IMG/VR virus record: IMGVR_UViG_3300033121_002154
Coordinates: 28,908-92,907 of that record
Length of the DNA stretch: 64,000 nucleotides
From: a virus
Taxonomy: Duplodnaviria; Caudoviricetes
Strand: one strand, 5' to 3'
Shown here: positions 19,707 to 64,000 of the stretch, piece by piece
How the letters are laid out: each line of letters starts with the position of its first letter
Numbering within the stretch: position 1 is the stretch's first letter
Program-made: the position numbers and the translations under genes
The notes under the pieces: model-generated
The model's input: the letters and a program-made list of their open reading frames with translations, nothing else
Told to the model about the DNA's origin: nothing
The model's database searches: none

Positions 19707-20807
19707 ATGAATAAGAGCAATTCAAATTTGGCTAAAGCAATTAATGAAGCAGATACAATCAAAGCAGGTGCACTTAGAAATGCTAATGATTTGCTTATTG
19801 AACAATTTAGACCAAAGATTAAAAATTTTATAAATAGTGCTTTAAATGAACAAGCTCTTGGGCTTGATGAAACTGTACCTTCTGATTTTGATCCGAGTGC
19901 AGGTGAAGACGGTGTTGAAAATCCACAAAACACTATAAATGTTGGTGGTGGTGGTATTCCATTAACTGAACAAGAAGAAGAAGATTTAGAAAATCCAGAA
20001 GACATTGTTGAACAAGACAATGTTGATTTTGATGATGAAGAAATTGTCGAACAAGAAGATATAAACCTTGACGATGAGAATATTTCTGAACAAGAAGATA
20101 TTGATCTTGATGATGAAGACATATCTGAACAAGATATTGATCTTGATGATGAAGATATTTCAGAGCAAGAAGATATTGATCTTGATGATGAAGATATATC
20201 TGAACAAGTAAATGATTTCAATGATCTTGACGATGATGCTATTATTGAAATTGATGATGAAGAATTAGATGATGATTCTATAAGTGAAGAAGATGATAAA
20301 GATGTTACTGATGATGAAGATGATATCGATGAAGATGTTGATGTAAATTCAGCATATAGCGATGAAATCTTGAATAGCACAAATGAATCAAGAAATTTCA
20401 GAAAATTAAAAATTGAATATAGAAATTTAAAAAGAGCAAATGCAAATCTTAAAAGAGAAAATGCAAAATATAATAAAGGCATTTTAATTTTAAGAAAAAG
20501 ATTGCAAGATGTAAATCTTTTTAATGAAAAATTATCTTATTCAATGAAAGTAATTAATAACAAACCAAATCTTTCTCAAAAACAAAAAAGATCAATTGTT
20601 GAACAATTTGATAATTGTAAAAACATAAGAGAAGTAAAGATTACATTTAATGCAATTAATAAATTTTCAAAGCCCTCTGTACAAAAAACAGTTCCACAAA
20701 GAGGATTAAATGAATCAACAAGAAGAATTTTCAGAAATATAAATGAAAACAGAACTAATAAAAATTCTGGAAATGATTCAAGAATGATGCAATTAGCAGG
20801 TTTATAA
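19707..20807 (+). CDS. prohead core scaffold protein (gp22-like)
   Basis: Acidic repeat centre, coiled-coil, VNLFNEKL.Y and MMQLAGL end; immediately upstream of the capsid gene. Confidence 0.75.
   Translation: MNKSNSNLAKAINEADTIKAGALRNANDLLIEQFRPKIKNFINSALNEQALGLDETVPSDFDPSAGEDGVENPQNTINVGGGGIPLTEQEEEDLENPEDIVEQDNVDFDDEEIVEQEDINLDDENISEQEDIDLDDEDISEQDIDLDDEDISEQEDIDLDDEDISEQVNDFNDLDDDAIIEIDDEELDDDSISEEDDKDVTDDEDDIDEDVDVNSAYSDEILNSTNESRNFRKLKIEYRNLKRANANLKRENAKYNKGILILRKRLQDVNLFNEKLSYSMKVINNKPNLSQKQKRSIVEQFDNCKNIREVKITFNAINKFSKPSVQKTVPQRGLNESTRRIFRNINENRTNKNSGNDSRMMQLAGL
20005..20210 (+). repeat. coding tandem repeat, about 39 bp (SEQEDIDLDDEDI)
   Basis: 5-6 imperfect copies within the scaffold gene. 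Confidence 0.85.
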
Positions 20808-27267: not shown

Positions 27268-27654
27268 TTATCTAGTTCCATTTTTCCAAATTCCAGCTTT
27301 CCATATTCCACTTAACCAAAATCCATTTTCCCATATACCATTCTCCCAAAGTCCATTTTCCCAAACTCCAGCTTTCCAAATTCCATTTTTCCAAACCCCA
27401 TGCTCCCAAATTCCGCCATACCATACTCCGTTTATCCAAGTTCCAGATTTCCAAAGCCCACCCAGTAAAACTCCAGATTCCCAAATTCCATCATACCAAA
27501 TAAGATTTCCAAGTGAACTAAGCCCCAATATTGCATTTTCAATTTTTGCCTCTAAAACCCATGTGAATTTTTCTTTTAAGATTTCTAAAGTTAAATTATC
27601 TTTTAATTTAATTATTCCATATTTTCTAAAATTATCTTCAAAAAAATATTTCAT
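27268..27654 (-). CDS. GxWxx pentapeptide-repeat protein
   Basis: About 14 G.W.. repeats; paralog of 63348-63731. Confidence 0.85.
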   Translation of the reverse strand: MKYFFEDNFRKYGIIKLKDNLTLEILKEKFTWVLEAKIENAILGLSSLGNLIWYDGIWESGVLLGGLWKSGTWINGVWYGGIWEHGVWKNGIWKAGVWENGLWENGIWENGFWLSGIWKAGIWKNGTR

Positions 27655-28737: not shown

Positions 28738-29031
28738 TTAATTTAGTAATCCACGTTCTTTAGAAAGTTTCATATATCTTTCAACTTTTTCCATTTTTAG
28801 TCTAATTTTCTCAGGATCTATAAGATCATCAATTTCTTTAAAAACTCCTTCAATTTTTAATAATTTTATAGTTGCTACTACATCATTATATTCATCTATG
28901 AGTCTTTTGTAATTCGGTTCATTATCTTTATATTTTTCATCATTACCAAAACAAATCATTTTAGTTGCTCGTTTTGTTAATTCTGAACATTCTTCTGCTA
29001 GTTTAACCAGCAGGTATTGTTGTTTTGTCAT
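28738..29031 (-). CDS. MazG-like nucleotide pyrophosphohydrolase
   Basis: LAEECSEL....K...FG...L.DE..D. Confidence 0.7.
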   Translation of the reverse strand: MTKQQYLLVKLAEECSELTKRATKMICFGNDEKYKDNEPNYKRLIDEYNDVVATIKLLKIEGVFKEIDDLIDPEKIRLKMEKVERYMKLSKERGLLN

Positions 29032-39382: not shown

Positions 39383-39874
39383 TTAATTTTTTATTTTTTT
39401 AATTGAGATTAATGCATTTGGTCTATCCAAAAGATTATCCTGGAATGTTTTATTATCCAAAATTTTTTGTTCATCCCACAACTTATGTAAATCATCATTA
39501 GACGGATATCCGTCAGGAAAGATATGACAAAATTGATCTATATCTATTGTATCAATATTATTTTTTGCAGACCAATATTGCAAATATGTAAGATACATTA
39601 CAGCAATTGCAGGATTTGCTGACAAATAACTTAACCATAATATTACATCATTAGTTAAATTATAATCATATAAAACAGACAATCTTTTTTCTATTAACTT
39701 AAATAAAAATGGTTTTTCTTCTTCTTCTAATTTTATATTTTTTAAACTATTAATTAATATTGATGCCAATAATTTTGTATGTACAAAATCCATCGGATGT
39801 TGCTGCAATTTTGAAAATTTTTCACAAAAAACATTTTCAATTGAATTTTCTTTTATTTCGGCTTCTTTTATCAT
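39383..39874 (-). CDS. hypothetical protein, paralog of 40328-40759
   Basis: Shared VILWL...YL.YLQ.WS..NN...I.I..FC.IFP.GYP...DL.K. Confidence 0.75.
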   Translation of the reverse strand: MIKEAEIKENSIENVFCEKFSKLQQHPMDFVHTKLLASILINSLKNIKLEEEEKPFLFKLIEKRLSVLYDYNLTNDVILWLSYLSANPAIAVMYLTYLQYWSAKNNIDTIDIDQFCHIFPDGYPSNDDLHKLWDEQKILDNKTFQDNLLDRPNALISIKKIKN

Positions 39875-40310
39875 TTAAATTAAAATTTTTTCAATATTGT
39901 AACATTTGAAACAATGTAAAATTTGATTTATATATACGCCCATAAATCCATCAGGTTCAGGTAAATTTCTATTACATTTTTGACAAAATGTTTTTGCTGG
40001 TAATTCCGGTAATTCTGGCAGTTGATATTCTAATTCAGAAATTATTTTTAACAAAGTTTTTTCAATCTTCATTTTTTTTAAATAACCAAGTAATGATAAT
40101 GTAAATTCTTTACGAAATTCTTCCGTTGCAACATTGGGAAATAAAAAAACATTTTGTGCATCTTCAATTTTATATTTTTCCATAAAATCTTCCATCATCA
40201 TCTCTTCTAAATTTCTATGTAAAATTCTTGAATCTAAATTTTTTATTCCAAGAAAATATCCAAATTTCATAATTTTTTATTTTTTTAATTATAATAATAT
40301 AAATAATATA

Positions 40311-40327: not shown

Positions 40328-40759
40328 TTAATTAATAGTCATTGAATAATATTGTGATGTTAAAATTTCATTTATTTTGAGTAAATCACTTTTTAATGGG
40401 TAACCTTTAGGAAAAATATTACAAAAATCTAAAATATTTATTACATCTTTATTATTTATTTTTGACCATTGCTGTAAATAATCCAAATAAATTTTTGCAT
40501 AAATTTCATTTTCACATATCCAACATAACCACAAAATTACACTATTTTCAAGTGTAAAACTATATTCATCTTTTAGTTTCTTTTCAATTATATAAAAAAG
40601 TGGTATTTTATTTTCTTCTTTTAGATATAAATCACCATCTTTCATATAACTTAAAACCAAATTTCCAAGTAGCTCAGAATCTTCCTCGGTTAATGGAATT
40701 TTTGTTGTGAAATCTTTTATTTCATTATAAATAATTTTTTTCAATTTTGCTTTATTCAT
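40328..40759 (-). CDS. hypothetical protein, paralog of 39383-39874
   Basis: Shared C-terminal pattern with 39383-39874. Confidence 0.75.
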   Translation of the reverse strand: MNKAKLKKIIYNEIKDFTTKIPLTEEDSELLGNLVLSYMKDGDLYLKEENKIPLFYIIEKKLKDEYSFTLENSVILWLCWICENEIYAKIYLDYLQQWSKINNKDVINILDFCNIFPKGYPLKSDLLKINEILTSQYYSMTIN

Positions 40760-41395
40760 AAACGTTTGGCCTCGCCTTCTTTAATTGTTATATCATGTTT
40801 TTCATATGTGCATATATCAATTTCATATTTTTTACGATATTCATCAAATATTTTATCAGCTTTTGCAGGTGTTTTTGCATTTACTATAACAATATTCATT
40901 TTGATGCCAACATTCCATATATAATAAAATATTCTTTTTTTCATTTATTTTTTAATTGGAAATTTTTGTGAATATGCTGTATTCAAATATACTGCTTTAT
41001 TTTTTTCAATACTATCAAGCACATAAATTTCATTATAATAAACATTATTTATATCATTTTTTTCAAAATATTCATCAAATATTTTTTTTGATTTTTCAAT
41101 ATTCTTTGCTTTAATAACAACAATATTTACACCGGCACTATTAAACCATTTGTAATAAAATGTTTTCATTTTTATTTTAATTTTAAAGTTTATAAAAAAT
41201 TGAATTTTCTTCTTCAAATTCTTTTAAAACTTTTGCTCTTTCTTCTTCTGTATTAAAAAAATCTCTTGTTCTCCCACCATCTTCCCATTCCCATTCAATT
41301 CCAAATTTTCCATTATCAGTTTCAAATATATCAGAAATATATTTTTCCATTTTAGTTCTTATTTAATTTTTTAATAATTTAATATAATAATAATA

Positions 41396-41412
41396 TGTTA
41401 CTTTAATATTAC
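41396..41412 (-). promoter_or_regulatory. direct-repeat promoter box
   Basis: TGTTAC-TTTAA-TATTAC. Confidence 0.75.
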
Positions 41413-41415
41413 TTT

Positions 41416-42150
41416 TTAAATAATACCTTCAAATATTAATGCAGGATTTAACCCTGCATTTAACTTCCAATTATCCCATTCTTCCTGAGTAATTATTTTA
41501 AAATCACGTTTTTTACAATCTGTTATAACTTCATCATAAGAACATTCAATTATTTGTCTACATATTTCGCCTGATTTATTGTAGGCAATGTACCCATATA
41601 CATAATTTCCAGTCGAATATTCAGATCCCCGTCTTCTTTCTCCGGCGGGTTTTGATATTGATGCTAATCGGGATTTTATTAATGCAATCCCTTTATAATG
41701 CCTGAATATGTCAAAATATTCCCTTTTCGGAGTTTCATACTCTCTGAATTTGCAGAACTCAAACTTTACAGTTTTTGTTCCGTCCACATTTTCCACTGCT
41801 TTTCGCTCTGTTGTTGAACAAATCACAGTATACCCCTCACCCTGTAGTAGATTTACAAGATAATGAGTATAACACATTTCACCCATTACCATAACCACAG
41901 TGTTCTGATTGTTATGATAAAGCGGAAAGTCTTTTAAAGACTTTTCCGAATCCCTTCTATTGAAAGGTTTTATCAAATCTTCCAAAGTGGATATATGGGA
42001 ATACTTTACAGTATCCCAATCAGGGTTTATATTTGGAAATGGAAGATCGATTATTTCTTCTGCCATTTCCAAAGCAGCTGTTTTTTGCTTTTCACCCCAT
42101 TTATCGGAGGGATGGTTGGAAATATTAAGAAAATATTTCATTTTATTCAT
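41416..42150 (-). CDS. Csx20/Csx15-like CRISPR-associated Rossmann (ring-nuclease-like) domain plus C-terminal extension
   Basis: N.SNHPS.KW...Q..AA...IIDLPFPNI.P...MGEM.....V..L...G.....STTER...E..DG.K...F.F..FREY. Confidence 0.65.
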   Translation of the reverse strand: MNKMKYFLNISNHPSDKWGEKQKTAALEMAEEIIDLPFPNINPDWDTVKYSHISTLEDLIKPFNRRDSEKSLKDFPLYHNNQNTVVMVMGEMCYTHYLVNLLQGEGYTVICSTTERKAVENVDGTKTVKFEFCKFREYETPKREYFDIFRHYKGIALIKSRLASISKPAGERRRGSEYSTGNYVYGYIAYNKSGEICRQIIECSYDEVITDCKKRDFKIITQEEWDNWKLNAGLNPALIFEGII

Positions 42151-42487
42151 TTTTATTTAATTTAATTATTAATTAAGCCCAATTTTCAAAAGCAATAGCT
42201 TCTTTATCTAATAATACTTTCATTGCAATTTTCCCGTAAAAAAATTTATCATCAGTATTTGCATTTATAAAAACATATTGCCCATTTTCTTTATCAATAT
42301 ATTGATACCGACTTATCCATTCACCATCATTTACTATACAATATCTATAACCATTTTTAAGTTGAGTAACTTTTGTTAATATTTTACCAACACAAACATC
42401 TTCATCATTTAACTGCAACCACGATTTACTATAAACTTTTGAGTTTCCCATTTTTATTTTTTTAATTATTATAATATAATAATAATA

Positions 42488-42504
42488 TGTTACTTTAATA
42501 TTAC
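42488..42504 (-). promoter_or_regulatory. direct-repeat promoter box with TATAAT 14 nt downstream
   Basis: TGTTAC-TTTAA-TATTAC; attata at 42468-42473; ATG 42451. Confidence 0.8.
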
Positions 42505-42548
42505 TTTTATATATCAATAATATTTATATAAATAAAGAGGAGTAAATA

Positions 42549-44132
42549 ATGAAGCAAATTTTAATATTAATTATGTTTTTTTGCAGTTTTTCTATTTTAA
42601 ATGCTAATCCTACAACTATAAAAATTAGTGCAATTTTTGAGGGCAGATATAATTCTCAAAATAATTCTATGATTGGTGATTCTGCAAAAGTTTATATAAG
42701 ACAAAACAACTATCCCTATTTAATAATAGATTCATCTGTAAATTTTATTGGAAATAATTTTGAGGGATATTTTAGTTTTAATAATATTATAACTGGCAAT
42801 TATTTTATTACATTAAAGCATAGAAATTCAATTCAAGTATGGAGTAATCCGGGAATTAAAATAACCAGAGGAATTTTAAATTATTATGATTTTACAAAAC
42901 CCGGAGCTGTTTATGCAAATAATGTAAAATTTCTGGATAATCAAGCAACAAAATTTGCACTATATTCTGGTGATATAAACCAAGATGGAATTATAGACGT
43001 TTGGGATATATCTTATGTCGAAAATCATCTCGGCAATGAAGGTTATGATATAGCAGATTTAAGTGGAGATGATTTTGTTGATGCATCAGATTTAAGTATT
43101 ATAGAAAATAATATTGACACAATTGTTATGATAAAAAATCCCCCAACAACATTAACATATCCAAAAATTATATATCCGCCTATTAAATCAAGTACAACTA
43201 ATGATATTTTATTATTGCCATATACTTCTGTCATTAAAGTTAATGATACATTTTTTATGTATTATTTAATTCCTGGGTTAGGTACAAAATTAGACACATC
43301 ATTAGATGGAATAAATTGGAAATTTAAAGCAAATGTTTCTGTAAATAGAAATAATGTTCCATCAAAAGGAGACTCATTATATTCAGTAATTTATAAAAAT
43401 GGCTTATGGTATAGTGGGTGGACATGTCATGCATATGTTGGTTCAGTTTACACAGAATTTATTAATATAGCTGTTAGTTCAAATGGAGTAAATTTTACTC
43501 AATATTCAGGAAATCCATTACCATTTAGAGTAGGTGAAGATTTATCATTTTTTAATAATATAGATTCATTTTATTGTTATATAAGACCTGCAATTCCAAT
43601 GTATGTTTATCCGCGTCAAATTGGTTTAATGAAAAGTCGTGATTTTATAAATTGGACAAAAATTGATACCATAATAAAATTTTCTAATTCTGATTATACT
43701 AATTCATTATCGCCGTTATATTTAAAGCAACCATATAATATGAATGTTATAAAAATTGGAAATGATTGGTGGGGCTTTATGCAAACATTGCGAATAGAAG
43801 ATGATGGTACAGAAGCCTGGAGATTTCCATATACTGAATTAGAAGAAACTGTTGAAACATTATTAATGTATAGCAATGATGGTAAAAATTGGAAATATAC
43901 AAATAATAAAAAACCGTTTATTCCGTTACATGATTCTATAAAACAAGTTTATGCATTACCAACAATAGTTAATGATTCTTTGTACATTTATTCCTTTGAA
44001 AGTTCTTTAAGGCATGCAGGTTATTCACTTGCATATGGCGGACAAGCAGCAGTTGACTTTGCAAAAGGTAAAAAATGGAAAATTTTTCTTTATAAATTTT
44101 CAATAAATGATTTAAATTTTTGGAAACCATAA
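42549..44132 (+). CDS. secreted protein: signal peptide, dockerin-like domain, beta-propeller glycoside hydrolase-like domain
   Basis: MKQILILIMFFCSFSILNA; GDINQDGIID / DLSGDDFVDASD; repeated S.DG.NW / S.DF.NW motifs; RBS AGAGGAG. Confidence 0.75.
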   Translation: MKQILILIMFFCSFSILNANPTTIKISAIFEGRYNSQNNSMIGDSAKVYIRQNNYPYLIIDSSVNFIGNNFEGYFSFNNIITGNYFITLKHRNSIQVWSNPGIKITRGILNYYDFTKPGAVYANNVKFLDNQATKFALYSGDINQDGIIDVWDISYVENHLGNEGYDIADLSGDDFVDASDLSIIENNIDTIVMIKNPPTTLTYPKIIYPPIKSSTTNDILLLPYTSVIKVNDTFFMYYLIPGLGTKLDTSLDGINWKFKANVSVNRNNVPSKGDSLYSVIYKNGLWYSGWTCHAYVGSVYTEFINIAVSSNGVNFTQYSGNPLPFRVGEDLSFFNNIDSFYCYIRPAIPMYVYPRQIGLMKSRDFINWTKIDTIIKFSNSDYTNSLSPLYLKQPYNMNVIKIGNDWWGFMQTLRIEDDGTEAWRFPYTELEETVETLLMYSNDGKNWKYTNNKKPFIPLHDSIKQVYALPTIVNDSLYIYSFESSLRHAGYSLAYGGQAAVDFAKGKKWKIFLYKFSINDLNFWKP

Positions 44133-44171: not shown

Positions 44172-44581
44172 TCTTTTTATCACAATTACATACAAATTTT
44201 TTCAAATAATTATTTTTTAATATTTTATAATAATAATAATCAAAAGAATCATGTTTATTCTGATTTGATTTTTTATATTTTATAAAATATTTTCGCATAT
44301 GCTGCAATAATATTAAACGAAATGTTTTATCAATTTCTTTATTACGATGCAATTTTTTCCCACTTAAAATTTTGTGCCTTAGATAATTCATTTGCTAAAA
44401 ATGGATTAGCATTATCAATATCTCGTTCATCACCATAAATATATCTTAAAAATTCATCTAAAAGTTTATTATCTTCAGGCGAATTCATTTCAAGAATATC
44501 TGGAACAACTAACTCTAATTCTATTTTAATTTTCATATATTTATTTTTAAATTACTATAAAAAATTTAATTTTAAAATTTG

Positions 44582-44653
44582 TGATCGGCGGAGAATTCGA
44601 ATCTCCATTCTTGGGATGTAAACCCAGTTTTCTAACCGTTGAAATAGCCGACC
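44582..44653 (-). tRNA. tRNA-Val(TAC), no encoded CCA
   Basis: Cloverleaf GGTCGGC/GCCGATC; loop TT-TAC-AT; T-loop TTCGAAT. Confidence 0.85.
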
Positions 44654-44662
44654 AAACAATTG

Positions 44663-44735
44663 TAGTTGGTAGAGGAATCGAACCTCTATTCATCGGATAT
44701 AAGCCGATTTCTTTGCACCATTAAGATAACCAACC
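44663..44735 (-). tRNA. tRNA-Ile(TAT), no encoded CCA
   Basis: GGTTGGT/ACCAACT; ATCGG-CT-TAT-AT-CCGAT; T-loop TTCGATT. Confidence 0.88.
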
Positions 44736-44742
44736 AAAAATA

Positions 44743-44903
44743 GTCCCCGAAAGAGGAATCGAACCTCTACAAAAATAAATTTTCAATTTAATTAGATTAT
44801 ATAAATATCATCACTATCTATACAAAATTTAAATTTTATTCTGTTCTCACAAACCCGTGATGAAAGTTTCAGTGATAGCATCGCCAATTGTGCAGTTCGA
44901 GGA
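44743..44903 (-). ncRNA. 161-nt tRNA-like RNA with expanded anticodon and variable regions
   Basis: Acceptor TCCTCGAA/TTCGGGGA; D-like GCA..TGG..TGC; ATCACT/AGTGAT stem around about 55 nt; T-arm AGAGG-TTCGATT-CCTCT. Confidence 0.65.
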
Positions 44904-45315
44904 ATTTTATGTAAATATAATTTCTTCTTCTAATGCAAGTGCATCGGAACAACCATTTTTAAATTGAATAATTTGATCTAAAAAATATTCATCAATTGAT
45001 TTATTTTTCATATAAATTGCTTCATCTAATATCTTTCTTATTTTCTGAATTTCGGTTATAGAAAAACTTCCCTCAGAATCAGAATGATTTAAAAGTGGGA
45101 AAATATCTAAATTTTTAAGTTCATTTATAGATTTTTTTCTATACGATTTTCTATGTTCCAAAACTGCATCAGTATCATATTCAATATATTCATTTAAATT
45201 TATATTAAAAAGTTTAGCAAGTTTTATCCTAAATTCATTAAAACTGCCACAACTTCCATCATAACAATTATGTGATACTGTAACACCCATGATTTTTAAT
45301 TTTTAGGTTAATAAA

Positions 45316-45393
45316 TGGTGGACTTTCCCAGAGTCGAACTGGATTCTTATGTGCTTCAAACATACGCTGAATAACCCTACTAGCTCAAAGTCC
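45316..45393 (-). tRNA. tRNA-Phe(GAA), CCA encoded
   Basis: GGACTTT/AAAGTCC-A-CCA; TATGT-TT-GAA-GC-ACATA. Confidence 0.85.
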
Positions 45394-46051
45394 TTATTAA
45401 TTCTTGTTTTGTATAATTTTTAATTTCATTAAATAATTTTTTTTCAATTATGAAAATTTTATTTTTTAACCAAATATTTTGTTCTAAAACTAATCTCATT
45501 TTTTCTTTATCATCTCCCCACCAAAACCCTTTTATTTCAATAAATTTATCAAATATTGGTAAATAAAAATCTGGCGTATATCTTTTTTCTTTTTCATCTT
45601 TTTTATAAATAATTGGTTTACATCTTTCCCATTTTATATCAAATTCATTTAATTTTAGAGCAAAATCCCTCTCCCAGCTTCCCTGAACTTTTTTACCATT
45701 TACTTCATACCATTTACTTTTTCCGCCAGGATTATTTTGACTCATTTCTAATGAATGAAATTTTCTTTTTTCTTCAGTCCAAATAGCCCATCCATTTTTT
45801 TTATAAATACCTTCCTTTACTTGTTTTTTTAATTTATTTGAAAGATTTTTTGAGCTCTTTAAAATTCTTTCATCTATATTTTTATTCAAATTTTTATTCC
45901 AAGGAACCCGACCCTTAGGTGCACCTCCAAACTTTCTACCAAGATGCACTTTTAATATATGAGTTGAAATACCCTTATAAGAATATTTCTTTATACAATG
46001 TGGACATTGATAATTTCCATCAGAACATTTCCATTTATTTAAAATTTTCAT
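45380..46051 (-). CDS. putative homing endonuclease (C2H2 finger, NUMOD-like segment, PD-(D/E)XK domain)
   Basis: CPHC...H....H; PWNK; S.WE...YTPDFYLP....IEIKG; stop codon lies inside tRNA-Phe. Confidence 0.8.
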   Translation of the reverse strand: MKILNKWKCSDGNYQCPHCIKKYSYKGISTHILKVHLGRKFGGAPKGRVPWNKNLNKNIDERILKSSKNLSNKLKKQVKEGIYKKNGWAIWTEEKRKFHSLEMSQNNPGGKSKWYEVNGKKVQGSWERDFALKLNEFDIKWERCKPIIYKKDEKEKRYTPDFYLPIFDKFIEIKGFWWGDDKEKMRLVLEQNIWLKNKIFIIEKKLFNEIKNYTKQELIRTLS

Positions 46052-46097
46052 TTTAAATAAATATTACCGAAAATTATCTAATATTAAAAATCAACTG

Positions 46098-46128
46098 CTG
46101 GTGCATATGCCATATCTGCCAAAGCCCC
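46098..46128 (-). pseudogene. orphan tRNA 5' half
   Basis: GGGGCTT-TG-GCA-GATATGGCATA-TGC-A-CCAG: acceptor 5' strand, D-arm and start of anticodon stem with no 3' half. Confidence 0.55.
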
Positions 46129-46161
46129 ATTTATTTTTAATATATAAATGTAATAAACATT

Positions 46162-46178
46162 TATTACTTCAATATTAC
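46162..46178 (-). promoter_or_regulatory. direct-repeat promoter box
   Basis: TATTAC-TTCAA-TATTAC, 34 nt upstream of the tRNA half. Confidence 0.75.
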
Positions 46179-46684
46179 TTTTTCAATAAATTTTGTATCT
46201 GAATTTTTTTATCTCTAATAAATTTTAAAGTCTTATTATAACTTTGAATTCTTTTATTATCTTTTTGATTGTTATTTGCAGCTTTATCAGAACTAAAAAC
46301 TCCATACCATTTATATCCACTATACAACTTTTTCATATTGCTTTCTTAATTTAAATTATACTTTCTTTTTCTTATTTCATCTATAAATTTTTTATAGTTT
46401 AACAATCTTTTTTCATCTCTTTTTTTATGATTTTGATTTGCAACAACTGTTTCTGTTGAAAAATCACCATACCATGCGTAATTTTTATATAAAGATTTCC
46501 TCATTTTTGTAGTATTTGAAAAATTTTTTTTATTAACTTTTTTATAATATTTATTAACAATTATTTCTTTTTCATTAAAATCAATATAACTATCAATATA
46601 AATTTTTTCATCTAATAAAAAAATATCTTCCCCTAAAAAATTATTCATTTAAAAAATTATTCATTTAAAAAAAATTTTATGTTG

Positions 46685-46759
46685 GGTGTCTGATGGGTTA
46701 CGATCCCACACTCTTTCGAGTCACAATCGAATGTTTTAGCCAATTAAACTACAGACACC
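46685..46759 (-). tRNA. tRNA-His(GTG)
   Basis: G-1:C73; GTGTCTG/CAGACAC; TTCGA-TT-GTG-AC-TCGAA; atypical T-loop ATCGTAA. Confidence 0.85.
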
Positions 46760-47191
46760 ATAATATACTTTTTATTTTAACTTTGATTACCTATACATAT
46801 AAATTATCCATATAATAAAAATAAATCAGAATTAAAAAATTCTTTAAATTTTATATCTGGGTCAAAAATTTCTTTTAATTTTTTTTATTAAATTCAATTA
46901 AAAATTCTTTATTGCTTTTAAAAAAATATTTCATAAATTAATATTATCTTTTATAAAATTCAATATATAAATTCGGATATTTATATTAACAATTAGTTAT
47001 AACTCCAATATTTATTATACCTGAATTTTCTTTTCTATTTTATTTACTAATTATTGTAAATATTCAATTATCAAAAAGTTATCATCTTAATCATTAATTT
47101 CTATTGAAGATAAATCATCTTTTTGCAATGGTATTCCCCATCTTAAAAGAGTTTTTAGTTCCACTATTAATAATACCATAATTTATTTTTT

Positions 47192-47365
47192 TTAATTAAA
47201 ATAATCTTTATATAATTCATTTATAGTTGGGCCCATACAAAAATTTTTTGAATTAGGGTTAAAATAAGCATCAAAAAATTCTTTTATTGTAATATTGTTA
47301 TATTTAATTTTAGTTTCAGCTTTAATTAAGATTAAATCTTTATTAAGTTTAAAAAAATATTTCAT
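47192..47365 (-). CDS. 57-aa MKYFFKLNKDLI microprotein
   Basis: ATG-to-TAA ORF just after tRNA-Leu(CAA); 5' about 40 bp identical to 47563-47736. Confidence 0.55.
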   Translation of the reverse strand: MKYFFKLNKDLILIKAETKIKYNNITIKEFFDAYFNPNSKNFCMGPTINELYKDYFN

Positions 47366-47379
47366 AAATTAAAAATATG

Positions 47380-47460
47380 TGTTTCAAAAGAGATTCGAAC
47401 TCTTAAGTCTATTAAGGTGTATGCTTTTGAGGCATATATTTACCGTTTCATCATTTGACC
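47380..47460 (-). tRNA. tRNA-Leu(CAA), degenerate acceptor stem (possible pseudogene)
   Basis: TATGC-CT-CAA-AA-GCATA; long variable arm; T-arm intact; acceptor mismatched. Confidence 0.6.
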
Positions 47461-47467
47461 AAATTTA

Positions 47468-47552
47468 TGGTGACCCAGGAGAGATTTGAACTCTCATACC
47501 ATTTCTGGCACAGGTTTCTAAGACCTGCATGTATACATTCCATCACTGGGCC
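47468..47552 (-). tRNA. tRNA-Leu(TAG), CCA encoded
   Basis: GGCCCAG/CTGGGTC-A-CCA; CAGGT-CT-TAG-AA-ACCTG; long variable arm. Confidence 0.9.
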
Positions 47553-47562
47553 TGTCAAAAAT

Positions 47563-47736
47563 TTATACTTTCCATTGAGGATAACTTTCATCATCAAATT
47601 TATATTGTCTATAATTTGCATCTATAATTGATGAAATATCTGATGTAAGTTTTACCTCAAGAAATTGTATGGGTACAACTTTATTTTCAAATTTTAATTT
47701 AATTAAATCTTTATTAAGTTTAAAAAAATATTTCAT
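47563..47736 (-). CDS. 57-aa MKYFFKLNKDLI microprotein
   Basis: ORF just after tRNA-Pro; shared 5' repeat. Confidence 0.55.
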   Translation of the reverse strand: MKYFFKLNKDLIKLKFENKVVPIQFLEVKLTSDISSIIDANYRQYKFDDESYPQWKV

Positions 47737-47751
47737 AAATTTATTTAGTAG

Positions 47752-47826
47752 TCAAGGTGGCGGGCATCGAACCCGCGAACCCCCGGCTCCAAACCGGGCA
47801 CTAACATCCATCCTAGCTCCACCCTG
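47752..47826 (-). tRNA. tRNA-Pro(TGG)
   Basis: CAGGGTG/CACCTTG; CCCGG-TT-TGG-AG-CCGGG. Confidence 0.9.
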
Positions 47827-47849
47827 AAAATTTTATTAATATTACTTTG

Positions 47850-47930
47850 TTGCGGGAGGAGGAATCGAACCTCCGACTCCTTTCAGAAGGGGGTTATGAG
47901 CCCCCCGAACTACCACTATTCAATCCCGCA
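47850..47930 (-). tRNA. tRNA-Met(CAT), initiator-like, with long variable arm
   Basis: TGCGGGA/TCCCGCA; GGGGG-CT-CAT-AA-CCCCC; extra arm TTCT-GAA-AGGA. Confidence 0.85.
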
Positions 47931-47963
47931 AAAAACCATTTCTATATTTCTAAATTATAAAAG

Positions 47964-48048
47964 TACTCCTGGAGGGACTCGAACCCTCACCCCATTAAAG
48001 AGATATGAGCTTAAATCATATGTGTACTGCCAATTTCACCACAGGAGC
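47964..48048 (-). tRNA. tRNA-Leu(TAA)
   Basis: GCTCCTG/CAGGAGT; TATGA-TT-TAA-GC-TCATA; long variable arm. Confidence 0.9.
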
Positions 48049-48057
48049 ATCAAAAAT

Positions 48058-48113
48058 AAGGCGAATGGTATTTTTTATTCATCCATAAAGTTAATAGGAA
48101 CCATTTTTGCCTT
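48058..48113 (-). ncRNA. hairpin element downstream of the TerD-like gene
   Basis: AAGGC-AAAA-AUGG-UUCCUA...UA-CCAU-UC-GCCUU; related copy at 49952-49998. Confidence 0.55.
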
Positions 48114-48121
48114 AAGAATTT

Positions 48122-49936
48122 TTAATTCAGTAAAGAAATTAAAGAATCTTTTGAAAGAACTTTTAAATCAATATCTGGAGATTCATCAGTAAAAGTAAAT
48201 CCTGAATCTTTTAATAATTTATTTAATGATAAATAACATTCACTTGTATCTGCAGCATATTCAGTATATAAATCTGTTATTGACATTCTACTTATTCTGC
48301 CAGAACCTGTTCTAAAATTTGTTAATATAAATTTATTATTTACTAAAACTCCAAATGTTTTTTCTTGTGAATCCATTTCTAAATCAATTGAAAATAAAAT
48401 ATTATTTGGATCTACCATATAGTTGGGTTCCAGATTTGTTATTTTTTCTGTTGCAAAAAATAATTTTAATTTACTTCCAATCTCACCATTAAAAAGATTT
48501 GCTTTTATTAAACCCTTCATTTCAAATCCTTTTGTAGCATATATTAATTCTGTTGCCTCTGGATTTGCATTAGTCATATCACCCGAATAAATTATTGAAT
48601 TAGAATCATTATAATAACTTGAATTCCAACCAATTTTATAACCTGAAATATCATTAAGACTTAAATCAATATCTCTAGCACCATCAACATTTCTCCAATT
48701 TATACCTATTATGGCATCTTTATTTGATAAATCGAAACTTGTTCCAAGAGGAAAATTGCCTATAAATGATTTTTCACTTGTCGGTAAAGCCAAATTTACA
48801 TTTTTTGGTAAACTAATTGTACATGCTTTTTTCTTTAAAGATTCAACTAAACTTTCATATATTAAATAAAAACATCCCAATAATTCACCTGCACTTATCT
48901 TTGATTTTTTTTTTATTTCATTTTGTTTCATAAATAACTTTTGGTTTCTAATCACATAAGCATTCATATCAAGATTTAACAACCTGATATTAATAGTTTG
49001 CAATAATAATATTTTTTTGAAGTTAGAAATTTTTTCCAATTTTTCTAAAGTTAAATCATTCAAAAATTGTTTATTGCTTAATAAATTTTCAAAATATCCT
49101 ATTTTCATGGGTTCGTGAAACTTTTTCGCTAATTTTCTTAGTTTATTAATTATACTTGCATTTTTTTTATTTTTGAAACTTAAAAAAATTGGTTTAAATC
49201 TAAGAAATACTGATGCCAATTTTTCAATTCCGAAATCTTTTACATATTTTTCAAATGCAACATCATGAACGTTATCTTGAATTAATTGTAATGTTTGTTT
49301 GTCTTTTATTAATAGAGATTTTCCAGTTACAGAATATACTAAAAATCTTACCATTTCAACTGGATCTTTCGGCATAATATTTGTTGTTTTGCAAATAAAC
49401 ATTTTTGCCTCTCTATTTTTAACACTTTCAACATCTACAACATAATCAAAATAATTAAATATAGATAATATATTTTCAATGGTTTCTTGTTTTAGAGCAA
49501 TACCACTAAATAACATATTTTCACATTTTTCCAAAACTTCTTCTTTACTAATTATATTTATAACTTGAAATTTAGTAAATTCTATATTTTCAATTTTAGA
49601 AAGATTATGTGCATCATCTATTACTTTTGGAATATATGGTTCACCCTGAAAATCTGTGCCATATGTAGAAGCATAATGCTTCAACTGATCTATAAATAAT
49701 TCGAATCTTGATTTTTTAATAATTGAATTCCAGCTTTTATAAAAAGTTGAATTGTAGTCAAATGTTTTTGTTTTAATAAAATTTATCACTTCATCTGAAC
49801 AAGCATCGGGATGTATTAAATATCCCTTGGGTACTGTAATTTTATTCACATACTCAAAAGACAATTTTTTATCATCATCTACTTTCAAAGAGTTATTAAA
49901 TAACTCAATTACTAAATTGTTTATATTATTTTTCAT
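48122..49936 (-). CDS. large helical protein with C-terminal TerD-like domain
   Basis: GINW....RDIDLS...IGWN..Y......YSGD.TNA...ATE; start taken at ATG 49936. Confidence 0.6.
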   Translation of the reverse strand: MKNNINNLVIELFNNSLKVDDDKKLSFEYVNKITVPKGYLIHPDACSDEVINFIKTKTFDYNSTFYKSWNSIIKKSRFELFIDQLKHYASTYGTDFQGEPYIPKVIDDAHNLSKIENIEFTKFQVINIISKEEVLEKCENMLFSGIALKQETIENILSIFNYFDYVVDVESVKNREAKMFICKTTNIMPKDPVEMVRFLVYSVTGKSLLIKDKQTLQLIQDNVHDVAFEKYVKDFGIEKLASVFLRFKPIFLSFKNKKNASIINKLRKLAKKFHEPMKIGYFENLLSNKQFLNDLTLEKLEKISNFKKILLLQTINIRLLNLDMNAYVIRNQKLFMKQNEIKKKSKISAGELLGCFYLIYESLVESLKKKACTISLPKNVNLALPTSEKSFIGNFPLGTSFDLSNKDAIIGINWRNVDGARDIDLSLNDISGYKIGWNSSYYNDSNSIIYSGDMTNANPEATELIYATKGFEMKGLIKANLFNGEIGSKLKLFFATEKITNLEPNYMVDPNNILFSIDLEMDSQEKTFGVLVNNKFILTNFRTGSGRISRMSITDLYTEYAADTSECYLSLNKLLKDSGFTFTDESPDIDLKVLSKDSLISLLN

Positions 49937-49951
49937 AATTTTTTTAAAATC

Positions 49952-49998
49952 GGCGGATAGTACTTTAGTCAAATGAATTTTTAGGAACTATCTTTGCC
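49952..49998 (-). ncRNA. hairpin element in the 5' leader of the TerD-like gene
   Basis: GGC-AAAG-AUAG-UUCCUA...UA-CUAU-CC-GCC. Confidence 0.55.
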
Positions 49999-50063
49999 AA
50001 ATTTATACATTTATAATATTTTCTAATTTTTGCTATATTGTATATTAAATTAATTCTTTTTAA

Positions 50064-50124
50064 AATTATTTAATAAAAAGTAATATTTCAATGTTACTTA
50101 AATATTACTTTTTATTAAATAATT
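50064..50124. repeat. perfect 25-bp inverted repeat overlapping a promoter box (50092-50108)
   Basis: AATTATTTAATAAAAAGTAATATTT-11 nt-AAATATTACTTTTTATTAAATAATT. Confidence 0.85.
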
Positions 50125-50149
50125 AAATTTATTTTTTTATTATTTAAAG

Positions 50150-50223
50150 TGGAGATAGTGAGAATCGAACTCACCGCAAATTGCTTGCAAAGCATTTTCG
50201 CCGCCATTGGAACATGTACCCCC
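50150..50223 (-). tRNA. tRNA-Ala(TGC)
   Basis: GGGGGTA/TATCTCC with G3:U70; TT-TGC-AA loop. Confidence 0.85.
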
Positions 50224-50547
50224 AGATTTATGAATTGTTATGCGGAACTGCATTTTGCCCCAAATCAGCTATATCGGCATTCACCTTTGATAATTCATAT
50301 TCTATACAATCAGAAGTAATTGTATAAAAATTATCATTATCAATTTTAATTATTAATATATTAGAATAATCATTTATAACTGTTGCTATTTTATCAGCGA
50401 GATTTATTGATTTTTCAACTGGATTTGATAGTCTATTTTCAAAAAATATTTTTTGTAATTCATTAACAGGTTTTAATTTTACTAATCGCATTTTTTTAAA
50501 CTTTTAAAAATAAAAAAATATTTAATTATAAAAATTTTATAATTTTG

Positions 50548-50621
50548 TACAGGTAACCGGGATCGAACCGGTTCTATTCAGGTTTGGAAGACCCGTGCAC
50601 CACCAATTATGCGTTACCTGC
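50548..50621 (-). tRNA. tRNA-Gly(TCC)
   Basis: GCAGGTA/TACCTGT; CGGGT-CT-TCC-AA-ACCTG. Confidence 0.88.
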
Positions 50622-51117
50622 TTTTATTTAAAATCTTAAATTCTTCTTTTGTCTAATTATTAAATTCCGTAACCAAATCTTTTAATATTGAAATGCACTA
50701 TCACCAGGTTCTTTTCTTATTACATTTCCCAACTCAATTTTAGCAGATGTCATTTGCGTATATTTTTGATAAATTGGTAAAAATTTACTATTTTTTAATC
50801 CAAACTCATCTTCATCTTCTTTAGTAGAAAAATAAAATTTAACTTCTTTTATCTCAATATTAGAAGGAAGAATCATATTAGAAGATATAAAAGAATTTTT
50901 TATTTTATAATTTTTTATTTTTTTACTTATTTCTAAATTTAGAATTTCCGATGCAAAAGATTCCAAATTTTTTTGAGAAACATTATAAAAACGAAAAAAT
51001 ATAGAATAATTCATTATTTTTATATTTATTTTTAAAAAACACTATCGCAACAAACTGAACAATTCCAAAATAATGCTTCTCGGGTACCATTACAAAATTC
51101 ACAAACTTCTTCCTTGG

Positions 51118-51162
51118 ATTCTTTATCATTTAATTCTTTATCATTTAATTCTTTATCATTTA
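51118..51162. repeat. 3 x 15-bp tandem repeat
   Basis: attctttatcattta x3 (NDKEL on minus strand). Confidence 0.9.
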
Positions 51163-51414
51163 TATTTTTACTCTTTGAAGTTGATTTATTTAATTTCAGT
51201 TTTTTTCTTTTTTTTGTGTTCAGTAATCTTGTCTTCCATAAAATTATTTATTTTCTTTAACATATTTGATAATATTTTTTGTTTTTCTTTTTGAATCTCA
51301 ACTAAAATATCATAATAATCATAGATAAGTTCAAAATAATCTCTAAATATTTTAATTTCTTCTATTTCTTTTAATGTTAAATTAATTTTTTCCATTTTTA
51401 CATAAAAATTTTTG

Positions 51415-51503
51415 CGGAAGAGAAGAGATTTGAACTCTTGATACAATTTAATTTATATGACTATTTAGCAAACAGTTGGTTTAGACCACTCACCCACCCT
51501 TCC
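51415..51503 (-). tRNA. tRNA-Ser(GCT)
   Basis: GGAAGGG/CTCTTCC-G; ACTGT-TT-GCT-AA-ATAGT; long variable arm. Confidence 0.88.
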
Positions 51504-63347: not shown

Positions 63348-63731
63348 TCATTTTTTAATGTCTATTAAATAATTTCTTTTTTTAAGTTTATTTCTCCAAT
63401 CTCCTTCAATCCAAGTTCCTTTTTCCCAAATTCCGCTATACCATATTCCATTAATCCAAGTTCCATCTTTCCAAATTCCATTATACCAATATCCACCTCC
63501 CCAAGTTCCATCTTCCCAAGTTCCATTTAACCATGTTCCATTATGCCAAATACCGTCTTTCCAAATACCATCAAGCCAAATTAATTGTTCTGAAATATCA
63601 AGTCCTAAAATAACATGCTTTATTTTTGCCTTCAAAATCCAGGGAAACTTTTCTTTTAAAATTTCTAAAGTCAAATCACCTTTCAGTTCTTTGATTCCAT
63701 ATTTTCTAAAATTATTAAAAAAATATTTCAA
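63348..63731 (-). CDS. GxWxx pentapeptide-repeat protein
   Basis: KYFF.NFRKYGI..LK..LTLEILKEKF.W shared with 27268-27654. Confidence 0.85.
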   Translation of the reverse strand: MKYFFNNFRKYGIKELKGDLTLEILKEKFPWILKAKIKHVILGLDISEQLIWLDGIWKDGIWHNGTWLNGTWEDGTWGGGYWYNGIWKDGTWINGIWYSGIWEKGTWIEGDWRNKLKKRNYLIDIKK

Positions 63732-63776
63732 AATCTTATATTTTATATTTATGATTTATATGTTGGAATTTCATGA

Positions 63777-64000
63777 TTAAGGGATTGCTTCCCGACCGAC
63801 CCCACTTTTCCAAGTTCCATTCACCCACAATCCATTATGCCAAATTCCACCACACCAAATTCCATTTCTCCAAGTCCCATTCTCCCATTTTCCATTATAC
63901 CATCTTCCATCAACCCAGGTTCCATTATACCAAATACCATCTTCCCAAAATCCGTCTCCCCAAAACCCAGTTTCCCACACCCCATTTCCCCATACTCCAT
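63777..64000 (-). CDS. GxWxx pentapeptide-repeat protein (5' partial)
   Basis: Frame open to window edge; G.W.. repeats. Confidence 0.75.
   Translation of the reverse strand, partial: GVWGNGVWETGFWGDGFWEDGIWYNGTWVDGRWYNGKWENGTWRNGIWCGGIWHNGLWVNGTWKSGVGREAIP

Follow-up and report, generated by a model that had tools for sequence, protein, structure and literature searches.

A T4-like phage carries a Csx20-like gene, a candidate anti-type III CRISPR ring nuclease fused to a conserved orphan domain

Why does a phage carry, away from any CRISPR locus, a gene that resembles a CRISPR-associated ring nuclease? The question is raised by a gene at positions 41416–42150 (minus strand) of a 64,000-nucleotide stretch of DNA, hereafter the window, which spans positions 28,908–92,907 of the viral record IMGVR_UViG_3300033121_002154. 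The initial annotation took the 244-residue product to be a Csx20-like ring nuclease captured from a host as an anti-CRISPR, with an extra domain of ~100 residues. Our analysis favors, with moderate confidence, a divergent, phage-borne, homodimeric ring nuclease of the Csx20 family that would act on cyclic tetra-adenylate (cA4) and is a candidate anti-type III CRISPR protein. The gene and the two domains of its product are organized as follows.

41416–42150, minus strand: whole gene, an open reading frame (ORF) starting with ATG that encodes the 244-residue Csx20-plus-orphan-domain protein; stop codon at 41416–41418; ten full-length relatives.
41731–42150, minus strand: residues 1–140, predicted Csx20 (CARF-like) ring-nuclease domain, delimited by PADLOC models, conserved columns, structure matches, and the dimer model.
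41419–41730, minus strand: residues 141–244, orphan C-terminal domain with 44 invariant columns, matching its own family only.

The assignment to Csx20 is carried by the N-terminal domain. The five motifs that had been named in the N-terminal ~140 residues are all found in the translation (NHPSDKWGEKQ, PFPNINP, MGEM, STTER, and FCKFREY) and coincide with columns conserved across the family. The PADLOC model of Csx20 (PDLC01397) is matched over its whole length, with residues 7–138 aligned to positions 2–114 of 114 (E = 6.6e-29). The second-best PADLOC model is PDLC01843, CARF2--CARF_HEPN_CSX20 (E = 1.3e-18), and three more Csx20 or Csx15/20 models also match. We aligned 55 Csx20 domains, comprising the window protein, seven close relatives, six other viral sequences, and 41 cellular sequences. 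At each of the 26 columns with a conservation of at least 85%, the window protein matches the consensus, which agrees with the Csx20-like identity proposed initially. The invariant residues N12, H13, W18, Q22, F38, P39, G90, and R116 are retained, and the family-conserved pattern SNHPS..W...Q, FP, GE, T..R, and G.K...F.F..FR.Y is present. Judged by these columns, the Csx20 domain is intact and complete. The match to the NCBIfam model NF040559 (CAS_Csx20) is partial (positions 49–124 of 124, E = 1.3e-9) and scores 38.5 bits, below the equivalog cut-off of 70 bits. The version of Pfam-A that was searched has no model for the Csx20 family; relatives of the protein carry the newer Pfam entry PF27247 (MJ1673) in precomputed annotation.

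The full-length AlphaFold2 (AF2) model contains two domains and has a mean predicted local distance difference test (pLDDT) score of 74. The best structural matches of residues 1–141 are CARF and SAVED proteins that bind cyclic oligoadenylates (cOA), interleaved with generic Rossmann-like folds. The N-terminal domain can be aligned with SAVED-CHAT at Z-scores of 5.9–6.4, with a root mean square deviation (rmsd) of 3.5 over 104 residues. The Z-scores are 5.5 for Cam1 with cA6, 5.2 for Can2 with cA4, 5.1 for Cdn1 with cA3, and 4.7 for TtCsm6 with cA4. The Crn1-family protein Sso2081 (7YGH), the reported best match of Csx20, is absent from the structural match lists. A Foldseek search of the PDB with the full model returns nothing at E ≤ 0.001, a sequence search of the PDB finds no chain matching the window protein, and a structure search of BFVD returns one 128-residue viral protein (E = 6e-4). 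The structural matches are modest in score: they agree with the sequence assignment and do not establish it.

The protein is predicted to form a homodimer. The prediction scores 0.63, compared with 0.00 for the best of three controls. It thereby passes a mark that was attained by 20 of 30 proteins whose solved structures pair two copies of one chain, and by 1 of 23 whose solved structures contain a single chain. Contacts agree by at least 49% between runs, and the pLDDT of the partner is at least 73. The predicted interface is symmetric and is formed by residues 43–49, 89–100, 111–115, and 133–139, which cover the conserved GEM, STTE, and FREY segments, together with residues 209–231 of the C-terminal domain. 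Likeness to solved CARF dimers may contribute to the passing score.

The gene resides on a 92,907-bp IMG/VR viral contig with a CheckV completeness of 44%. Its genes include those for a major head protein of the T4 type (phrog_138, E = 9e-68), tRNA nucleotidyltransferase, a polymerase, and thymidylate synthase, and ten tRNA genes are present. By this gene content, the element is a large T4-like phage. Among cultured phages, the closest major head proteins are those of Flavobacterium phages (43.5% identity), and Microcystis phage Mel-JY01 and Rhodothermus phage RM378 also match. The likeness to Flavobacterium phages may be a weak hint to the host. In a search of sequencing runs, one run contains the stretch and is probably from the source sample, further runs contain small shares of it, and none of the runs listed is an RNA run.

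The initial annotation saw no cas genes or array in the window and held that a phage-encoded type III system elsewhere would change the interpretation. The absence holds for the full 92.9 kb record. Two Cas10 models that fire on control genomes find no match anywhere in it, and it contains neither a CRISPR-like array nor any further cas gene. When the 110 ORFs of 100 residues or more were all scanned with PADLOC, the csx20-like gene was the only one connected with CRISPR or cOA signaling; no CARF or SAVED protein and no other defense-type gene was detected, and the remaining matches were to homing endonucleases and to a single candidate family, PDC-S07. The gene is not located in or beside a type III CRISPR-Cas locus, and within the 44% of the genome seen it is, on this evidence, an orphan Csx20 in a phage. 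The same situation, a virus-encoded Csx20 without a cognate CRISPR system, is found in four viral genomes of at least 98% completeness that carry a stand-alone Csx20, none of which contains Cas10.

The csx20-like gene differs from its genome in composition. It had been noted to be more GC-rich than its neighbors, and it indeed has a GC content of 33.5% in a genome that averages 24.0%, which ranks it within the top 0.5% of segments of equal size. GC content at third codon positions (GC3) is 0.269, compared with 0.128 ± 0.024 for 23 other genes, placing the gene ~6 standard deviations above the genome. Because the excess is located at synonymous sites, it points to horizontal acquisition of the gene rather than to amino-acid composition.

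Ten full-length relatives of 242–255 residues, sharing 56–86% identity, were found in metagenome assemblies; two shorter matches contain Csx20 only. The ratio of nonsynonymous to synonymous substitution rates (dN/dS) is ~0.04–0.21 in both halves, a rough estimate since dS is saturated. By this measure, both domains are under purifying selection. The genes flanking the close relatives are small ORFs without known function that differ between contigs, which argues that the gene moves on its own.

More distant viral Csx20 domains are present on eight other IMG/VR contigs, at 31–41% identity and almost all in single-domain proteins of ~125–155 residues. A tblastn search of 50,697 deposited phage records finds no match to the window protein or to two other Csx20 domains, and a megablast search with 12 kb around the gene finds none among deposited phages. 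One viral ORF of ~235 residues (L008:9914-10621, on an IMG/VR contig of 52,972 bp) combines a Csx20 N-terminal half that lacks STTER with a Cys-rich (CPGC...CLVC) C-terminal region, and may be a degenerate or repurposed Csx20.

Csx20 was found at 45 cellular loci, mostly in Bacteroidota, which account for 31 of the 41 cellular rows of the tree. The cellular forms are either stand-alone proteins of ~120 residues or C-terminal modules of CARF-HEPN (Csm6-like) proteins of ~560 residues. A Csx20 fusion of Palleniella intestinalis is encoded 5.6 kb from Cas10/Csm1 (E = 1e-138) on the same contig. In Algoriphagus formosus, csx20 is ~9 kb from a weak Cas10-like match (E = 2.1e-8, below the family cut-off), also on the same contig. 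In a maximum-likelihood tree, a single clade (SH-aLRT 98) unites the two-domain proteins; it falls within an unresolved, Bacteroidota-dominated region, and the tree identifies no donor. Of the earlier idea that a host ring nuclease was captured, the acquisition itself (by GC3) and the cellular kin near Cas10 stand; the source could equally have been another phage.

The fusions from Paludibacteraceae, Hallella, and Palleniella (L030, L032, and L053) are sequentially composed of CARF, HEPN (with an R-N-x-x-N-H motif), and C-terminal Csx20 domains over ~560 residues. Such a protein would be a Csm6-like RNase with a built-in ring nuclease. At two other loci, L028 and L029, similarity extending beyond the Csx20 domain was discarded as tblastn read-through past a stop codon, and the ORFs encode Csx20 only.

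Biochemical work confirmed the prediction that Csx20 is a cA4-specific ring nuclease; cA3 is degraded weakly, when the enzyme is highly concentrated (Hoikkala et al. 2025, PMC12409355). In the published model, Csx20 is a dimer and a conserved face lies at the ligand site (PMC12409355). Phage Csx20 was counted in four of 28,114 phage genomes of the Millard database (PMC12409355), or five in the bioRxiv version. Homologs of csx20 also occur in operons of anti-CRISPR (acr) and anti-CRISPR-associated (aca) genes, including csx20-aca14, and co-option by phages for counter-defense has been proposed (PMC13551039). Thus, the anti-CRISPR idea that the initial annotation presented as new was already published in outline (PMC12409355, PMC13551039), and what is new is the conserved C-terminal fusion.

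In the mechanism that we favor, the gene would be transcribed behind a recurrent phage box, and two Csx20 domains would pair about a two-fold axis. The SNHPS..W...Q, GEM, STTER, and F..FR.Y motifs would constitute a composite pocket that binds cA4, the second messenger of type III Cas10, and cleaves it to linear products. Host effectors activated by cA4, such as Csm6/Csx1, Can2, Cam1, and similar proteins, would then never fire or would be switched off. This strategy would equal that of the unrelated viral ring nuclease AcrIII-1. The simplest guess is that the C-terminal domain strengthens the dimer or covers the cA4 site, because residues 209–231 are at the interface in the dimer model. As far as computation goes, the anti-type III reading put forward initially is supported by the intact domain, the phage context, the lack of Cas10, array, and other defense-type genes in the record, the foreign GC3, the Cas10-adjacent cellular kin, and the conserved extra domain. 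Neither of the outcomes that the initial annotation named as refuting its reading turned up.

The extra ~100 residues map to positions 141–244 of the protein and form a separate, conserved domain. The C-terminal domain contains 44 invariant columns in eight sequences and is as conserved as the Csx20 domain. Folded alone by AF2, it has a pLDDT of 69 and a β-β-β-α-β-α topology, with a highly conserved loop, SKPAGE.R.GSEYS, between β1 and β2. None of the 45 cellular and eight other viral Csx20 genes that were examined encodes this domain. When 1.84 billion representative proteins were searched exhaustively with phmmer, only the domain's own family was retrieved, with ~11 near relatives; among the further hits, P0014 and P0015 represent fragments of that family, and P0016 is a spurious, translated tandem repeat. 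There is no Pfam match above threshold, with RNase_H_2 below it at E = 0.087, and nothing better than E = 0.75 among PDB sequences with either the single protein or a profile. Structure searches find nothing in BFVD and no usable match in the ESM Atlas.

VIA-align matches the C-terminal domain best to TsaB (2a6a), an ASKHA protein, with a Z-score of 4.3 and an rmsd of 2.6 over 57 residues. Many RNase H-like and ASKHA folds follow at Z ~3, including RuvC, RuvX, the RuvC domain of Cas12, and the PIWI domain of Argonaute. The first strand of the domain lacks a conserved acidic residue. The domain was not assigned as an RNase H-like nuclease, since the scores are below threshold and no catalytic acidic residues were found. 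The RNase H-like/ASKHA likeness may be taken as a weak lead, not as an identification.

These properties bear on an unlikely alternative in which the protein is a viral effector that senses cOA. The Csx20/CARF-like domain would sense host cA4 and the C-terminal domain would be its output module, nuclease-like or protein-binding, through which the phage responds to the alarm. CARF-type domains are usually sensors fused to effectors, and the strong conservation of the C-terminal domain, its topology, and its weak resemblance to TsaB, RNase_H_2, and the folds at Z ~3 would suit such an arrangement. However, the structural matches are all below a meaningful threshold, the BFVD and ESM Atlas searches are empty, and the first strand is without the conserved acid that an RNase H-like nuclease would need. 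In addition, the residues conserved in catalytically proven Csx20 relatives are all kept, and the tested Csx20 is a ring nuclease rather than a pure sensor (PMC12409355). A rather doubtful idea is that the C-terminal domain confers a second, unprecedented activity on a phage ring nuclease. That activity could be the binding or breakdown of a different immune signal or of the linear products, docking onto a type III component of the host, or action as a cA4-triggered effector.

The protein might instead be a cOA sponge that binds cA4 tightly and turns it over slowly, with the C-terminal domain promoting oligomerization around the ligand. Csx15, a related small CARF-like protein, behaves in this way: it sponges cA4 well, cleaves very slowly, and oligomerizes upon binding (PMC13148439). 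Sponges are a common phage counter-defense, and the extra domain forms part of the predicted self-interface. We nonetheless judge a sponge improbable. The tested Csx20 degrades cA4 fully (PMC12409355), and the conserved residues are intact here. The large cOA output of type III systems has been argued to defeat sponging, and Csx15 was not seen in phages (PMC13148439).

There is also little likelihood that the target lies outside CRISPR, with the enzyme mainly degrading cA3 or another cyclic oligonucleotide from a system resembling cyclic oligonucleotide-based antiphage signaling (CBASS) and the C-terminal domain possibly widening specificity. The activity of Csx20 on cA3 at high enzyme concentration (PMC12409355) would allow for this. 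However, the type III loci of cells combine Csx20 with cA4-dependent effectors (PMC12409355; also the loci analyzed here). The binding pocket carries no sequence sign of alteration. Finally, it is very improbable that the protein is a housekeeping ring nuclease for a type III CRISPR or other cOA system encoded by the phage in the unseen 56% of its genome: some huge phages carry CRISPR-Cas systems and the record is ~44% complete, but the record is devoid of Cas10, an array, CARF, SAVED, and other cas genes, the four near-complete viral genomes with Csx20 lack Cas10, and cellular csx20 lies within ~10 kb of cas10, whereas the neighbors here are small ORFs without known function.

Several observations weigh against a phage-borne anti-type III ring nuclease. 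The sub-cut-off NCBIfam score indicates a divergent Csx20-domain subfamily and not an equivalog, and the structural Z-scores are too low to identify the fold by themselves. The function of the C-terminal domain is left unexplained by a ring nuclease. No Aca-type regulator, known acr gene, or conserved partner is found beside the gene; the flanking ORFs have no Pfam or PHROG function, and the neighboring ORFs differ among relatives. With the record just 44% complete, a phage-borne cOA system might lie in the remainder. The reading also presupposes a host with a cA4-signaling type III system.

The window protein can be compared with several known systems. Like cellular Csx20, it has N-terminal 140 residues that span the whole model with all conserved residues, and a predicted two-fold dimer; a CARF-like fold is possible. 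It differs in being phage-borne outside a type III locus, in its size (244 residues versus ~115–150), in forming its own clade (SH-aLRT 98), and in scoring below the NCBIfam cut-off. The stand-alone Csx20 proteins of phages, including those at IMG/VR loci L002–L007, are likewise viral and cas-free and share the proposed counter-defense role. They are single-domain proteins of ~125–155 residues, some accompanied by the ribbon-helix-helix (RHH) protein Aca14, whereas the window protein has an extra domain and no recognizable Aca neighbor.

Csx20 is a module of a multidomain protein both here and in the Csm6/Csx1-Csx20 fusions of Bacteroidota (PDLC01843). In the latter, it sits at the C terminus behind a CARF-HEPN RNase, as in a self-limiting effector, whereas in the window protein it is N-terminal and its partner is an orphan domain. 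Crn4 orthologs of phages and plasmids bear extensions of unknown function (PMC12830947), and Crn4b with its extension of 60–80 residues is a precedent for a mobile-element ring nuclease with such an added segment (Chi et al. 2025, PMC12830947). Crn4b has a different ring-nuclease fold, its extension is N-terminal, and the extensions are not mutually related. AcrIII-1/Crn2 (DUF1874; said to have been described by Athukoralage et al. 2020) is reportedly a viral dimeric enzyme that destroys cA4, disarming type III effectors, and the action proposed for the window protein is alike. The window protein has no Pfam, PDB-sequence, or structural match to DUF1874, so the likeness to AcrIII-1 is functional and not one of family membership.

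The gene is located in a minus-strand region of small ORFs without assigned function. Three features define its transcriptional setting.

42173–42451, minus strand: 92-residue ORF upstream of the csx20-like gene, without assigned function; GC3 0.138 (native); no Pfam or PHROG match; not kept beside the gene in relatives.
42459–42508, minus strand: promoter-like box before the putative two-gene unit; at its core, two AAGTAAYAT half-sites stand in tandem; the box precedes the ATG at 42451 by 33 nt.
41367–41416, minus strand: second box copy, 92% identity across 50 nt (37 nt exact); starts at the stop codon of the csx20-like gene and precedes the ORF at 41183–41350 by 42 nt.

The initial annotation placed the gene in a unit driven by the box at 42488. 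The box proves to be recurrent: the 20-mer GTAATATTAAAGTAACATAT is present in nine copies at up to three mismatches, all on the minus strand, compared with 0.12 expected by chance. Seven of the nine copies are located 31–60 nt upstream of a minus-strand ORF starting with ATG. The nine sites fall within window positions 40308–62165 (minus strand), and a further site is found at genome positions 219–255; an exact 37-nt core is common to three copies. A scan for the generic sigma-70 consensus finds promoter-like sites at the chance rate, and no terminators were found. The box is therefore supported by recurrence and position rather than by consensus, and it is likely a phage-specific promoter or activator site.

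The csx20-like gene has no box of its own. The nearest one precedes the 92-residue ORF, and the start codon of the csx20-like gene is 22 nt past the stop codon of that ORF. The two are probably co-transcribed, and the simplest view is that they form one unit with the csx20-like gene as its second cistron. The idea that both genes between the two box copies constitute one foreign cassette was ruled out by the native GC3 of the 92-residue ORF (0.138), which leaves the csx20-like gene as the only foreign one.

Two paralogous pairs lie downstream on the minus strand. The first, at window positions 39383–39874 and 40328–40759, encodes proteins of 163 and 143 residues that belong to phrog_28318 (unknown function) and share the region ...ILWL...YL.YLQ.WS..NN.D.I.I..FC.IFP.GYP. 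The second, at 40756–40944 and 40945–41217, comprises ORFs of 62 and 90 residues that are duplicated in tandem, at a period of 231 nt (repeat families D1, D3, and D4).

Other features of the window are of separate interest. A divergent ORF of 527 residues (42549–44132, plus strand) begins with a signal-peptide-like N terminus and contains a type I dockerin (Pfam PF00404, E = 9.9e-6, residues 141–189); the remainder has no Pfam or PHROG match, and a dockerin-bearing secreted protein is unusual for a phage. A cluster of tRNA genes (44581–51503, minus strand) includes Val, Ile, Phe, His, two Leu, Pro, Met, Gly, and Ser among small ORFs. Within it, a 223-residue ORF (45380–46051) combines a C2H2 zinc finger with a Phage_endo_I-like region; tRNA-Phe (45316–45393) overlaps the 3′ end of this ORF. 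Repeats with a 15-nt period (consensus CCAAATTCCATTTTT and variants) occupy 27277–27460 and 63408–63940 (minus strand); they are within minus-strand coding regions, which implies pentapeptide-repeat-like proteins. An acidic, E/D-rich tandem repeat of 39/75 nt (19998–20236, plus strand, ~5.5 copies) is inside a 366-residue ORF directly upstream of the major head protein gene.

To our knowledge, AcrIII-1 is the only viral ring nuclease family with a proven anti-type III CRISPR function. For Csx20, phage genes have so far been counted and an AcrIII-1-like role has been proposed. The locus described here provides a clean test case, with an apparently intact domain in an acquired gene under purifying selection in a large T4-like phage, and its ten near relatives and the stand-alone versions on at least eight other viral contigs form a comparison set. 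If active, the protein would also offer a compact means of turning off effectors that depend on cA4. The added domain could reveal how a virus tunes a borrowed host enzyme, for example by speeding turnover, broadening specificity, or adding a second target. A second activity of the C-terminal domain, if true, would define a new class of bifunctional counter-defense proteins built on a previously unseen fold.

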